Origin: a virus
Length of the DNA: 10,603 nt
Reading direction: 5' to 3' (one strand)
UHGV virus genome: UHGV-1818536
The position numbers and the translations under genes were made by a program. The notes below the pieces were generated by a model. That model had not been told where the DNA came from, made no database searches, and saw only the letters and a list, made by a program, of their open reading frames with translations. Positions 1 to 4,844 of this stretch are shown here, piece after piece (the stretch's first letter is position 1; each line of letters begins with the position of its first letter).

Positions 1-425
1 TCTTCGCGTGTGGCGCTGTAAAACGTCACGTCATCCACGCCTTTGAAGTATTTCTTGATGGTTCCTACACGCTTAAGGCCAATCATTGCGCAGTACATCT
101 GCCCGTGGCGGAATTTGCGCGCAGCGAACGATGTGACGCACTGAACGGTGGTGTTAGTCAGAATGTATCGCCAGAACGCCAGCCCGATTTCCTTGCTGAA
201 GCCGCGAATCTCTGGCAGGTACATGGCGTGGCAATCGAATGTCAGCGGCTGAATCTCCTGATAGTAAACAATGCCGCCGAACTGCCCGTGCACGTTCACC
301 TCAAAGTAACGGCATTCAGGCTTGTAGTCGTATCCATCACCGTTGTTGCTACCGGCGATAATGTCGGGGTGATTTCCCACGGCTTCTATCAGGTCGATGT
401 TTCGCGTTGGTTTGAACTGAATCAT
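1..425 (-). CDS. 14: P22 gp14-like protein (ejection/assembly-associated), N-terminal ~141 codons; 3' end runs off the window
   Basis: ATG at 425-423 overlaps the tail-needle stop (TGATG); GGAG lies 5 nt upstream. My own translation of the minus strand is open to position 1 and begins [61 protein letters not shown]..., which matches my recollection of P22 gp14 and its position directly after the needle gene. Not in the supplied ORF track because it is truncated by the window edge. Confidence 0.8.
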   Translation of the reverse strand, partial: MIQFKPTRNIDLIEAVGNHPDIIAGSNNGDGYDYKPECRYFEVNVHGQFGGIVYYQEIQPLTFDCHAMYLPEIRGFSKEIGLAFWRYILTNTTVQCVTSFAARKFRHGQMYCAMIGLKRVGTIKKYFKGVDDVTFYSATRE

Positions 426-1378
426 CACTGCTCCGCGATTATCTTGATGGTTGTGGCAGTAAACGCCGCACCATTTGACTGAATGGTTAACGTGCTGCCA
501 TTTGTGGCAAGAAAGCCGTCTTTATCCACGCTGAAGAACGTAGCTAACAGGATGTTGTCGGTTGTTGTCGCCGCATTACGACTGCTGACCAACGTGTCAG
601 GAACAGAGCCGGAAAAGGTTAGCTGCATTGACCTGTTGGCGGTTCCGCTGGGCCACGTCCCGACAATCGACAGCTTGAAGAACAAGGTTTTGTTCTCGTT
701 GAACACAACCATCTTGTTGTTAACGGTGTCGAAGAATGGTGCCAACGTGCCGGATGACGGCGTGAGCGTTTTCAGCAGGCTAACAAGGTTGGTCGGCGCT
801 GTCGGGATGGTTACAGATACGCCAGAGTAAACAACCTCTGACTTCTTGCGAGTAGTGGCATACTCAAGCGCAGATATTCTTGTTGAGTGATCACCAACTG
901 TGCTTTGTAGCGTCGAAATACTTCCCTCTGCCGCTGTGAGCCTGGTATCAAGTGCGTCGATATCGGTTGTATTCTGAGTTATGCGCGCATCATGGTTTGC
1001 TAACTCAGATTCATTGGCAGCAATTCGCGTCTCGTGATCAGCCAGCTCTGTTTCAGCAGCCGTAATCCTTGTTTCATGATCTGCAAGAGTGCTTTCCGCT
1101 GTTGCGATTCTATGTTCATGATTGACGAGAGTTGCTTCAGCAGCAGCAATTCTGGATTCATGGTCTGCAAGGGTGGCATCCTGCTCATCATTCTTCACCT
1201 GTGCATCATAAGCCCCCTTCCCTGCTTCGTTGGCCTTGTTAGCCACGTTACCAACATCAGTGCCCTGTGCGATAACGTAAAGCAGATACGACTGCGAGAA
1301 GATATTGCGTGGAAGGACTGATGTGTCGAGCCGTGTAGCCTGAATGATTACCGGCACATTGAGATTCGAATCAGCCAT
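425..1378 (-). CDS. 26: Tail needle (P22 gp26-like), 317 aa: conserved N-terminal gp10-docking region, repeat-expanded trimeric coiled coil, and a C-terminal knob-like domain absent from P22 gp26
   Basis: The N-terminus [43 protein letters not shown]...[13 protein letters not shown] resembles P22 gp26 as I recall it. ATG at 1378 overlaps the gp10 stop (TAATG), with AAGGA 7 nt upstream. Residues ~67-125 are 14-aa repeats ([14 protein letters not shown] / [14 protein letters not shown] / [14 protein letters not shown] / [14 protein letters not shown]). The C-terminal ~130 aa are Thr/Ser/Gly-rich and beta-like. Length is 317 aa versus 233 aa for P22 gp26. Confidence 0.9.
1016..1190. repeat. Four imperfect tandem ~42-bp in-frame repeats inside the tail-needle gene, each encoding a 14-residue (two-heptad) coiled-coil unit
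   Basis: Units visible by eye: gcaattcgcgtctcgtgatcagccagctctgtttcagcagcc / gtaatccttgtttcatgatctgcaagagtgctttccgctgtt / gcgattctatgttcatgattgacgagagttgcttcagcagca / gcaattctggattcatggtctgcaagggtggcatcctgctca. Boundaries are approximate. The repeats account for the spurious opposite-strand ORFs at 1000..1191 and 1034..1321. Confidence 0.7.
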
Positions 1379-2796
1379 TACTCAATCCTTATCTGGCAGC
1401 CTGACAGAGTGACAGGTGACTTCGTGATAACGCGCAATTTGAAGCCGACATTTTTCCTGATGCGCCCTACTCGCTTCCACAAAACGCGTTTGTCGTAAAC
1501 GAACGGTTCATTCTGCTCAATCATCTGCTCACGCCCGTAATTGATGCCGTCAGTGGTTGCAGAGAGAAAAAGGCGGTCAGCATACTGCGCAACGCCAGTT
1601 GAAGATTCAACTTCAAGGTCGAAAACTCTGGCGTTATCCGCTTTGAACAACGGAGTAAACAGCAGGTGTTCCTGCTGCTTGTCGTACTGGCTGCTGATAT
1701 CGAACTGCAATTTCCCGGTCACGGATTCCAGCTTATCGCCGCACGTTATCTGATTTCCTTCGTAAATGAAGTCGATAGCGCGGTACACATCGTCATACAG
1801 ACCTGTTTTCAGCACACACCATTGCGGACCATTGGCGCTTGAAGATGCGTCGTACACGAGAACATGGCGTGGAAGGTGGATAATCAGCAACTCATGAGCA
1901 TCAAATCTCAGAGACTCCATCACGCCATCAGCCAGTTCATCAGCAGTGTAGGAGCGTAGTATTTTCTCAATGCTCGCGCTGGCGATTGGTGACACCTGAC
2001 CGGAGCCGATGATGTATACAGACGGCGCACCTGTTGCCGGATTGCTGATGAACGCATACGAATCAGCGAATGGCGTTTTGCAGTAAGTCCCGGCAATGCC
2101 TTTCTGCACCATCAGTGATGGCTGTGCGACATACAAAGCAGCACCAACGGTGGTTGCACCAGTCAGGGAGAAATATTCAATCGTCGATGAACCAAAGCAG
2201 ACGATGAAGTCTCGCCATGTGCCGATACCGATGATGCCGTCCGGCTGCGATTCTGCGCGATATTGTGCGCTGTAACGGTCAGGATGCGATTCGTCTTCAA
2301 GGTCAGTGATAAACCATGAATCAGTGCCGTCTTTTGACCACGCATAACGCCCACGTAAGCGCGTAATGTCGCGGACTGAGCCTAACTCATACTGCGTGAA
2401 TCCGCTGTCTGTAGGCCAGTTTGAGACGGTTTTAACCGTGCCATCATAGCGATACTCGACCAGTTGACCATTAACGCCTACAGCCTGAGATGTCCGTCCA
2501 TGCGCCATTGATACGCGACCACTTCCGGCAACATCACCGACCTCGCTTTCACCCTTATACAGCTTGCCGCCACACACGCGATATACAGCATTCTGCGCCA
2601 TGTTGTACTCGACTCCGCGCGATACACCGTTTACATCAGAGCGTTTGGCAATGCCCGGGAATGAGCGAAGATATCCGCTGCTGTTCAGGATTTCTTTGGG
2701 TGTAGCCAACATATTCACTGGCAGATAGTCGATATAGTCGGCGTTTCGAAAGTCTTTGCCGACACCTTTCATAAGCGGAAGTTGCTGAATCGGCAT
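1378..2796 (-). CDS. 10: P22 gp10-like head-completion / tail-hub protein, 472 aa
   Basis: 472 aa, the length of P22 gp10. It sits between gp4 and the needle gene as in P22. ATG at 2796 overlaps the gp4 stop (TAATG), with GGGAG 6 nt upstream. Confidence 0.9.
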
Positions 2797-3296
2797 TATT
2801 CGCTCCCGTTATCGCAAGGTTCCTTTCGGTGGAAGTAATTCCAACCATTCCACTTCGCCAACTGGTTACCGCTACCAACAGGCATACGGTTTGGATAACC
2901 GGACTTACATTTAGCGGCTTTTGCTCTGTCCATTGCAGACAGTTTGACGAGTCGCTCTTTCCCGTATCTGGCAGTGGTTATAAGTTTTGCAGACGCTTCC
3001 AGCGCATAATCTGGAGCAATGCGGCAGGCAAGGTTGAAAATGACGGCATTGATAGCGTTATTTGATAAACCGTGCTCATCGCCCGGATCTGGAGCGACAT
3101 CTGCATCAGCGAAAATGTAGCCAACGTTGATACCAGGTGACGCATCACCGCCAAGCCATTCAGCCATCATCATTTCAAGGTCGTTGACGCCGTCTTCCAT
3201 AGACTGCGGTTCGACATCGGTTAACGTGGCATTTGATGCCACACCGAGCTTACGTAATGCCGCAAGAACTAAATCACCCTTCGTTGTCAGGTTCAT
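2796..3296 (-). CDS. 4: P22 gp4-like head-completion (portal-binding tail adaptor) protein, 166 aa
   Basis: The ORF track opens this frame at 3365 (189 aa), but the internal ATG at 3296 ([32 protein letters not shown]...) gives 166 aa, the P22 gp4 length, and has AAGGCGG upstream. The 3365 start would overlap the upstream small ORF by ~90 nt. Confidence 0.85.
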
Positions 3297-3504
3297 CTGC
3301 TGCCGCCTTAGGTTTTCGACCAGGCTTTTTACGCTGTTTTTCTTCTGGCTCTGGCTCTGCAACATCCTTCAAAAGGTCATCAGGATGTGAAAACCAACCA
3401 GCATCCAGATATTCCTGAAGCTCTTCGGCTTTCACGATTTCAAAGTCGTAGCCAACGCCTTTCCACTTCTTCATGTCGCCATGACGAAAGATCATGTGTG
3501 TCAT
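3274..3504 (-). CDS. Small hypothetical protein (~76 aa) between coat and gp4, with a charged C-terminal tail ([27 protein letters not shown]); possibly the counterpart of the small ORF reported between genes 5 and 4 in P22
   Basis: The track ORF 3274..3552 begins with GTG overlapping the coat stop. I prefer the ATG at 3504 ([16 protein letters not shown]...), which has a strong GGAG 6 nt upstream and lies just downstream of the post-coat hairpin. Its 3' end overlaps the gp4 start by 23 nt. Coding status is not proven. Confidence 0.45.
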
Positions 3505-3514
3505 GCTTGTCTCC

Positions 3515-3545
3515 AGATAAAAAAGGGAGCCGAAGCTCCCTCTGG
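3515..3545 (-). terminator. Intrinsic-terminator-like hairpin immediately after the coat gene
   Basis: On the minus strand, just after the coat stop: (a)GA-GGGAGC-UUCG-GCUCCC-UUUUUUAU. This is a perfect 6-bp GC-rich stem (extendable to ~9 bp with a G-U pair), a UUCG tetraloop and a U6 tract. Confidence 0.6.
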
Positions 3546-3548
3546 TTA

Positions 3549-4844
3549 TCACGCAGTCTGGTTAGGCAGACCAACACCAATTGCCTCTGGTCGTACAGCA
3601 CATGCTGAATACCACACAGCAATACGGCACTTACCAGACAGAGTGTTGATATCACCCTGCGTTGCGAAGATGCCGTTAACACCAATACCTGGAATGCTGA
3701 AGGAAGACGTTTTCATGCCAGCAAACAGTTCATGGGTTACCGGGATCGGCTGAGACAGCAGACGGATTGAGTCATCAGCCCAGAACACGTTAGCGGTGGT
3801 TGTTGCCACGTTCAGAACGTTTACCGGAGTGGTATCAGCAAGAGAGGTGTTTACGTTAGCGTAAGCCTTCTCTTCTTTTGTCAGTGACGCGTCATCCAGC
3901 GCAATCGGCTTCGGCGTGATTTCGATGTGAGTACCATCGATCACACGGGTGATTGAGAAAGTAGCATCATCAGTCAGCACGTTCTTCGCCATCTGAGACA
4001 GGAATTTCACACCAGTGAAGCTGATTTTGTCGCCGCGCTTAAATCCGGTGGTGGAGGATACGGTCACCGTTGCAACACGGTTGTCGACGTTCTCTTTGTT
4101 ACCATCGGTATCAAGGGTGTATGCCTGCGGCTTAAACTTCTGCGCACCAGAAACAGTTACACCAGTAGCGGTTGACTTGGTAACTGCCGGAAGTTTCGGT
4201 GAGCGAAGAATTTCATCAAAGCCAGCAATCTGACGCTGAATAGTACCGTTGCGATACGCTTCTTCAGGAACGCGACCGAAGATGTCACCATCTACCAGGT
4301 TGCGGCCTGCTTTGCGGTAATCGTCAGGGTTCAGGAAGTAACTGATGCCCATATCGCGGTTTAGCTCACGGGAGAACATCAGGCGCTCTGCATCAGACAC
4401 AAAATCCCAGCCAGACAGGCCAGTAGATGGACCAATTGCGCGGGTATCGTGAACAACAAGCGAGCCCATTTCAGTTGCCTGTTTGGCAATCGCTGACTCA
4501 ATGTTATTCGCCAGTTTTTTGGCGGATGCCTGGATGCGGCGACGGTAAGAACGCTCATCACGCAGGTCATCTGCACGAAGCTCGAAGAAATCGTTATCCG
4601 GATCGCCCATGTTGCATTTCACGGAGAGCTCCAGAATCCCGGTAGCGTTGCCAGTTAAATCCCAGCCAGTCTGAGTTGGCGCTTCCTGCTCAACAGGCAT
4701 CCACACGGTGTTGCTTGAACGTTGCATGGATTCTGCCGGAGGGGTGTATTTTGTCACTTTGGACGCCATTGGCGTCAGGTTCTGGACGGTTTCGATGATT
4801 TCATCCAGAGCATACGTGACCAGTTGACCTTCATTTAATGCCAT
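3549..4844 (-). CDS. 5: Major capsid (coat) protein, P22 gp5-like, 431 aa
   Basis: 431 aa versus 430 aa for P22 gp5, with the recognisable start [27 protein letters not shown]... It follows the scaffold gene directly with a TAATG overlap, and AAGGA lies ~9 nt upstream. Confidence 0.95.

Follow-up and report, generated by a model that had tools for sequence, protein, structure and literature searches.

A syntenic small gene between the coat and gp4 genes of P22-like phages combines a predicted folded domain with a basic, AT-hook-like tail

We have analyzed a stretch of 10,603 nucleotides from the virus genome UHGV-1818536 (the whole stretch being hereafter called the window), which is the head-assembly region of an Escherichia coli P22-like phage or prophage and shows ~97% identity with the phages IME10, APC_JM3.2 and CurroJimenez_Bas106. 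All its genes, and all the features described here, lie on the minus strand. The subject of this study is a small open reading frame (ORF) of 76 codons plus TGA at 3274..3504 (ATG 3504-3502, stop 3276-3274), which is situated between the upstream gene of the P22-type coat protein (3549..4844, stop 3551-3549; Pfam P22_CoatProtein, E 2.8e-166) and the downstream gene of the head-to-tail adaptor gp4 (2796..3296; Pfam P22_Tail-4, E 1.1e-58). A terminator-like hairpin of 9 bp (3522..3543), GC-rich and with a UUCG loop and a T-run, is found directly 3' of the coat stop, and a GGAG Shine-Dalgarno motif, read from the sequence (3511..3514), precedes the ATG of the small ORF by 6 nt. At its other end the ORF overlaps gp4 by 23 nt (3274..3296), where its acidic terminus (DEPDNEG-stop) shares its nucleotides with the gp4 start (MNLTTKGD), and the likely gp4 Shine-Dalgarno sequence AAGGCGG (3303..3309), at a distance of 6 nt from the gp4 ATG, falls within Lys-Ala codons of the small ORF. 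This layout agrees with an initial annotation made from the sequence alone, which had described an ORF of ~76 codons with a strong GGAG directly after the post-coat hairpin and a 23-nt overlap with the gp4 start, now located at 3296; the C-terminus quoted there matches the translation exactly, and no strand had been given there.

The predicted product of the small ORF (8.8 kDa, pI 5.1, net charge -5) has a counterpart of 100% identity in phage CurroJimenez_Bas106, annotated there as a hypothetical protein, and matches the profile phrog_1175 over its full length (E 1.4e-37, residues 1-74 versus profile positions 1-72 of 72). Orf69 of phage P22 (NP_059631) likewise falls in PHROG 1175 (E 4.5e-31) and, as judged from these sequence matches, the small ORF is the E. 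coli-phage version of P22 orf69. The initial annotation had mentioned a small unnamed ORF at this position in P22, and P22 does have one in the annotated orf69, which lies behind an annotated stem-loop and has a 17-nt overlap with gene 4. Close homologues of the ORF number 289 in a large protein collection, and the ORF itself is found in 217 of 5,426 complete E. coli genomes, in which the PGAP annotation is hypothetical protein. The gene is therefore not new as an ORF, being already known and annotated as such. A passage of the epsilon34 genome paper, citing Eppler et al. (1991), calls the role of orf69 unknown and the gene non-essential in P22, in line with the earlier remark that no function had been assigned. 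Apart from this statement, we found in the literature no functional study of orf69, hkbT, WDGH or phage AT-hooks.

The small ORF is a genuine protein-coding gene. Of 83 close DNA copies, which comprise the window, 80 IMG/VR loci and two phage records, 82 preserve the frame, and over codons 1-49 of these copies 19 of the 23 polymorphic sites are third positions and none is a second position (binomial p = 1.7e-6), with 19 synonymous versus 6 nonsynonymous changes and a per-site ratio of 0.07. Comparison of the N-terminal block with the alleles of Enterobacter/Klebsiella/Citrobacter type gives pS values of 0.5-0.8 and pN values of 0.13-0.24, for a pN/pS of ~0.2-0.3. Both the N-terminal domain and the basic peptide of the tail, which is considered below, are under purifying selection. 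A chance ORF in an intergenic spacer would accord with the shortness of the frame and with its having been left unannotated in some records (IME10, APSE-2, phiSG1), and the initial annotation had itself allowed that the ORF could be non-coding; this possibility is refuted by the kept frame, the third-position bias and the family-wide conservation, and we take its probability to be practically nil. The conservation and dN/dS analysis that had been suggested for the frame thus bears it out, the synonymous pattern fitting this frame. Among individual records, one IMG/VR copy (L031:1500-1611) carries a nonsense mutation of W37 and another (L011:1500-1755) has lost the stop by a TGA to GGA change, which is synonymous in the overlapping gp4 frame. 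The IME10 records H3-H5 leave the small ORF without annotation.

An exhaustive profile search, which covered 1.84 billion cluster representatives (50% clustering), returned 685 matches at E <= 1e-3. The same N-terminal domain is encoded immediately upstream of the gp4 homologue in phage records of Proteus, Escherichia (JEP4), Shewanella and Kosakonia; a Vibrio phage protein at the coat-gp4 position gives a marginal match to phrog_1175 (E 0.008), and proteins located between coat and gp4 in Aeromonas and sortkaff phages resemble the family by eye, with no match to phrog_1175. We also looked up the metagenomic contexts of nine diverse members, two of which lie on contigs that are too short; all seven informative contigs present a P22-type coat gene, sometimes an extra small ORF, the orf69-family gene and then a gp4-type or equivalently placed gene. 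The stop of the family gene usually overlaps or abuts the start of gp4 (the overlap measures 23 nt in the window, 17 nt in P22 and 26 nt in Sf6, and in metagenomic loci it is 1-14 nt), and a gap separates the two genes in L100 and L102. The order of coat, orf69-family gene and gp4 is thus strictly maintained among phages that are evolutionarily very far apart. Databases of known families add little to this picture: Pfam, NCBIfam and PADLOC produced no significant family for the small ORF, the only match being DUF7302 (E 0.016, 16 bits versus a cut-off of 24.9), the BFVD search retrieved uncharacterised phage proteins of the orf69 family only, and no PDB chain matched the ORF by sequence (profile) or by fold. 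The absence of a structure match is consistent with a non-structural role, without proving one.

The interval between coat and gp4 accommodates other genes as well. In some distant P22-like modules, coat and the orf69-family gene are separated by an extra small gene (L093:621-992, L097:1161-1766, L098:3364-3504), which in Aeromonas phage 4_4512 (L093:621-992) encodes a Phage_gp49_66 (PF13876) protein; because such additional genes sit there in distant modules, the interval appears to be a general insertion hot spot. In phiSG1 (L007:900-1195), a coat-gp4 gap of 295 nt is present without an obvious intact ORF.

The comparison of P22 with epsilon34 indicates how the gene itself is exchanged. These phages are 98.5% identical in the last 200-300 residues of coat and 97% identical in gp4, versus 36% in the N-terminal domain of the small-ORF product. 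Their nucleotide identity (L003:940-1260 versus L006) breaks off just past the hairpin and is regained at AAGCCTAAGGCGG, namely the gp4 ribosome-binding site, with unrelated sequences in between, so the small ORF can be considered an exchangeable cassette that has the terminator and this ribosome-binding site as its limits. In epsilon34 gene 6 (186 aa; L006:657-1217), the orf69 N-terminus and a C-terminal KKPGPKPKA...DADKD are separated by an inserted WDGH domain (PF25311), an insertion before the basic tail that is shared by alleles of the epsilon34/ST64T type. Recombination also within the gene is indicated by the hybrid allele P0268, which joins an epsilon34-like N-terminal domain and WDGH to a tail of the window type.

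These properties would accord with a moron-like accessory that would act on the host or its defense, for instance by countering a nucleoid protein, a nuclease or an immune sensor, and for which the late operon would be no more than a parking place. Its loss is reported to be tolerated in P22, where the gene is non-essential, it forms a cassette whose mosaic boundaries are sharp and whose flanks are near-identical, and it accepts the WDGH insertion, hybrid alleles and the hypervariable repeat described below. Yet strict coat/gp4 synteny across very distant phages is unusual for morons, neither PADLOC nor NCBIfam yields a match, and selection on the N-terminal domain within subtypes is purifying and not diversifying, for which reasons we consider this explanation unlikely. 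The same allele comparison bears on the partner of the protein. Because divergent alleles work with near-identical coat and gp4, the partner is presumably generic, either DNA or a highly conserved site, and an allele-specific interface with those two proteins is less likely. This weakens the alternative of an assembly chaperone or adaptor, in which the target of the N-terminal domain would be the portal, terminase or gp4, the last of these being monomeric before its encounter with the portal, and the tail would serve as a protein contact or solubility element. The position immediately upstream of the gp4-type gene, with the usual overlap, does imply co-production, and a product that is absent from solved structures and dispensable in the laboratory would suit a chaperone; but N-terminal domains that are 36% identical alongside gp4 and coat proteins that are 97-98% identical speak against an allele-specific interface with those two, and the interchange of basic, AT-hook-type tails suggests a generic polyanion as partner. 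A chaperone function therefore seems doubtful to us.

The architecture of the protein was modelled with AlphaFold2 (AF2) using an alignment of 20 sequences. The model predicts a folded N-terminal domain of ~48 residues (residues 1-49, 3358..3504), with pLDDT values of 86-91 over residues 1-40, consisting of a beta-hairpin (2-14/17-25), a helix (26-34), the invariant G36-W37 and a second helix (41-49), whereas residues 50-76 are predicted to be disordered (pLDDT <50). This domain recurs outside the family. Among the long matches of the exhaustive search, about twenty begin with what appears by eye to be a GIY-YIG motif, and six long proteins that were scanned with Pfam and PHROGs (P0275, P0283, P0284, P0295, P0343 and P0347) have nuclease-type matches, to GIY-YIG, SegE_GIY-YIG, NUMOD3 or phrog_314 'homing endonuclease', in all cases except P0347. 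C-terminal to the GIY-YIG domains there are 3-7 tandem modules of ~30 residues with the consensus I.V.KDG..K.V...EL..YL..GW..G, the profile of which aligns with that of the orf69-family N-terminal domain at 96.7% probability in hhalign (E 4e-10); the endonuclease-like proteins also match phrog_1175 independently (1e-10 to 1e-16). As it is covered neither by a Pfam model nor by a PDB chain, the tandem module appears to be an undescribed repeat, and a search for a characterised endonuclease containing it led to nothing more than a GIY-YIG protein annotated in a Chryseobacterium jumbo phage. In GIY-YIG homing endonucleases, the regions downstream of the catalytic domain constitute the DNA-binding part. 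Since the shared module sits in this presumed DNA-binding part, the N-terminal domain of the orf69 family may, by analogy, also contact DNA. The window protein corresponds to one module of these proteins, with which it has in common the strand-helix-GW motif V..(D/E)EL..YL..GW; it differs from them (PHROG 314) in having a longer hairpin and no nuclease domain detectable with Pfam.

Past the folded domain, the chain continues with an acidic Glu-Pro spacer, AEPEPEE (3340..3360), that is predicted to be disordered and is encoded by a GAGCCA hexanucleotide repeat (TRF 3344-3359). The repeat has 2.7 copies in the window and 14.8 perfect copies in the relative L133 (L133:746-834), and the number of Glu-Pro units among close relatives ranges from 1 to >13, always in frame. 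The length of the spacer is hypervariable because slippage of a 6-nt repeat always keeps the frame. We take the succession of (Glu-Pro)n and a basic stretch rich in Lys and Pro to resemble the (Glu-Pro)n-(Lys-Pro)n spacer of TonB type; TonB is a membrane-anchored periplasmic protein, and its context is unrelated to that of the small ORF.

The spacer leads to a basic, AT-hook-like peptide of 11 residues with a net charge of +7 (3307..3339), and this in turn to the acidic C-terminal end, with a net charge of -4, the sequence of which is largely set by the conserved N-terminus of gp4 overlapping in the other frame. The basic motif RKKPG(R/P)KPKA is kept in alleles of Escherichia, Enterobacter, Klebsiella, Citrobacter and Serratia type, and between the window and other tail subtypes it shows 3-4 synonymous versus 0-1 nonsynonymous changes. 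Because the codons for R, P, G and R vary synonymously, the basic peptide is evidently selected as a peptide. The last codons of the motif (CCT AAG GCG) are instead invariant at the nucleotide level and coincide with the gp4 Shine-Dalgarno sequence.

This coincidence opens the possibility that the ORF is essentially a translational-coupling leader, which would bring ribosomes that arrive past the post-coat hairpin to the start of gp4 at a fixed, low frequency and the peptide of which would be of little import. Besides the invariant Lys-Pro-Lys-Ala codons, such a role would account for the location of the gp4 Shine-Dalgarno sequence and start within the ORF, for overlap or abutment being the rule and for the weak amino acid constraint on the tail among close relatives. 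It does not account for a foldable domain of 48 residues under purifying selection across 685 clusters, for the synonymous variation of R, P, G and R codons within the basic peptide, for the gap before gp4 in L100 and L102 or for the lack of a sequestering RNA structure at the gp4 start, and coupling is in any case compatible with a function of the protein; we regard a mere leader as very unlikely. A side observation at the same junction is that the metagenomic protein P0296 has the tail of the small ORF fused in frame to the N-terminus of gp4, which most likely reflects an indel or an assembly error, a frameshift product being the alternative.

How far the tail deserves the name of AT-hook was evaluated by sorting the tails of 116 small family representatives with simple patterns. 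The canonical [RK]GRP core occurs at the tail position in 12 of these (e.g., KPRRGRPPKVKE), while 18 have GRKPK-like tails, 35 end in another Lys/Arg cluster and at least 15 have helical tails (10 by pattern, 5 by eye). Compared with AT-hooks of the HMGA type, which have the core R-G-R-P, the tail of the window protein is likewise short, disordered, rich in Lys, Arg, Pro and Gly and flanked by acidic residues; it differs in having G-R-K-P, in a single copy, and binding to the minor groove is only putative. Variants of the AT-hook-like type with RGR or RGRKP do occur in other proteins. The AT-hook-like tail of the initial annotation therefore stands in part: its disorder, the purifying selection on its basic core and the RGRP core in 12 of the 116 relatives agree with it, but the window has G-R-K-P and so is not canonical, nor does Pfam AT_hook match the window protein. 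The term is probably fair as a description of how the tail is likely to act, and not as a claim of membership.

Taken together, a packaging- or DNA-associated accessory role would fit the strict synteny and the modular architecture of the family. The reading that we tentatively favor, as possible though short of probable, is that of a dispensable, bipartite DNA-binding tether that is co-translated with gp4 and assists the passage from packaging to head completion. The basic peptide would bind DNA with low specificity, in the minor-groove manner of AT-hooks, while the N-terminal domain would bind either DNA too or a conserved part of the packaging/neck machinery. Translational coupling would ensure production together with gp4, and the protein would act as a non-virion helper where packaged DNA passes from terminase to the head-completion proteins, in a manner comparable to that of the unrelated lambda FI.

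Several observations weigh against this proposal. Part of the conservation of the basic motif is not driven by the protein, since its Pro-Lys-Ala codons are the gp4 Shine-Dalgarno region; the Gly-Arg-Pro core of canonical AT-hooks is missing in the window (P-G-R-K-P-K); alleles of P22 type vary the tail proline (GRKSK, GRKLK); among close relatives the tail has 3 synonymous versus 6 nonsynonymous variants, mostly singletons; and the protein as a whole is acidic, as reported above. The similarity of the N-terminal domain to the endonuclease modules spans only 21 columns in hhalign, and the module motif is present also in signal-peptide-bearing, presumably extracellular Firmicute proteins (P0292, P0351, P0383), from which it follows that it is no dedicated DNA-binding module. 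RNA folding at the gp4 start (z +0.7) revealed no sequestering structure and no sign that gp4 depends on the small ORF. For the helical tails of Vibrio/Shewanella/Aeromonas type, a HeH/SAP-like reading is tentative, the Pfam matches lying below the curated cut-offs (of 15 such tails, single ones match Rho_N at 1.7e-4, SAP at 2.4e-4 and HeH at 0.03), and Pfam finds no HeH, SAP or Rho_N profile in the window protein.

A broader version of the tether proposal would extend it to all P22-like head modules, each with a dedicated, hitherto unrecognised small DNA-tethering factor, built from an endonuclease-type module and an AT-hook or AT-hook-like peptide on a Glu-Pro spacer of variable length, that would retain the DNA end or pass it on in the interval from terminase release to gp4 binding; alternatively, this factor would be a DNA-end-associated protein injected in few copies. 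We consider such a generalization improbable at present. P22 serves as a textbook model of headful packaging and capsid assembly, and yet the present gene, within its morphogenetic operon, is still without an assigned function. Our results indicate that orf69 is no oddity of P22, since it belongs to a strictly syntenic family of 685 clusters at 50% identity, with a bipartite architecture and parts that resemble DNA-binding elements. Should the helper role be true, an accessory factor would be added to the P22 pathway of packaging and head completion; should it be false, the gene would still be a well-defined exchangeable cassette and a candidate for host-directed activity.

Some features of the flanks deserve mention. 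The post-coat hairpin has a minimum free energy of -21.1 kcal/mol and a folding z of -2.67 (terminator scan and folding), and an equivalent stem-loop is annotated in P22, Sf6 and HK620. It resembles an intrinsic terminator, and its effect may be to attenuate transcription, to stabilize the mRNA of coat or to dampen the translation of the small ORF; bases adjoining the GGAG of the latter can be paired in an extended fold. Further away, the tail-needle gene of the window (425-1378; 317 aa) has a knob domain of Sf6 type (PF16532, E 1.4e-107), while coat, gp4 and gp10 match Pfam models named after P22 and are ~60-75% identical to their P22 counterparts. As judged from these domain matches, an Sf6-type needle knob beside P22-type coat, gp4 and gp10 is a mosaic joint within the tail genes.

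Among known systems, the closest to the small ORF are P22 orf69, epsilon34 gene 6 and ST64T Orf-186 (PHROG 1175, 3769), which have the same order of hairpin, ORF and overlap with gene 4 and share both the N-terminal domain and the basic K/R-G-R-K-P-K-A tail with its acidic end; the N-terminal domain of the window protein is ~39% identical to that of P22 orf69, which is without the (Glu-Pro)n spacer present in the window. Gene 6 of Sf6, hkbT of HK620 and an ORF of APSE-2 (PHROG 3251) occupy the same position with proteins of 61-63 aa that have a KRGRK/KKGKR patch, and they overlap the gp4 homologue. Their homology to the orf69 family is undetectable (hhalign 0.3%), and they can be considered positional analogues only. 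The ORF of APSE-2 (L008 ~1015-1205), which is intact and unannotated, is Sf6-gp6-like and lies between the coat and gp4 genes.

The comparison with lambda FI (PF14000, PDB 2LSM) is of a different kind. Its gene likewise lies between a major capsid gene (E) and a head-completion gene (FII), and both proteins are small and have two modules and an acidic, flexible linker, which in the window protein is predicted to be disordered by the AF2 model. Homology was rejected, hhalign giving a probability of 0.2% with the family profile and of 7% when the helical tails were aligned to the FI N-terminus; Pfam finds PF14000 in lambda FI and not in the window ORF, and no fold match was obtained in the PDB, including the C-terminal head-binding domain of gpFI. 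Lambda FI is a non-virion packaging chaperone that stimulates packaging and the interaction of terminase with the prohead, bridges the capsid and the terminase-DNA complex and can be bypassed by suppressor mutations; it is essential in vivo, whereas P22 orf69 is reported to be non-essential. We thus see lambda FI as the closest functional analogue of the small ORF, by analogy and not by membership, and a DNA-tethering factor common to P22-like head modules, if real, would be its counterpart for podophages with P22-type packaging.

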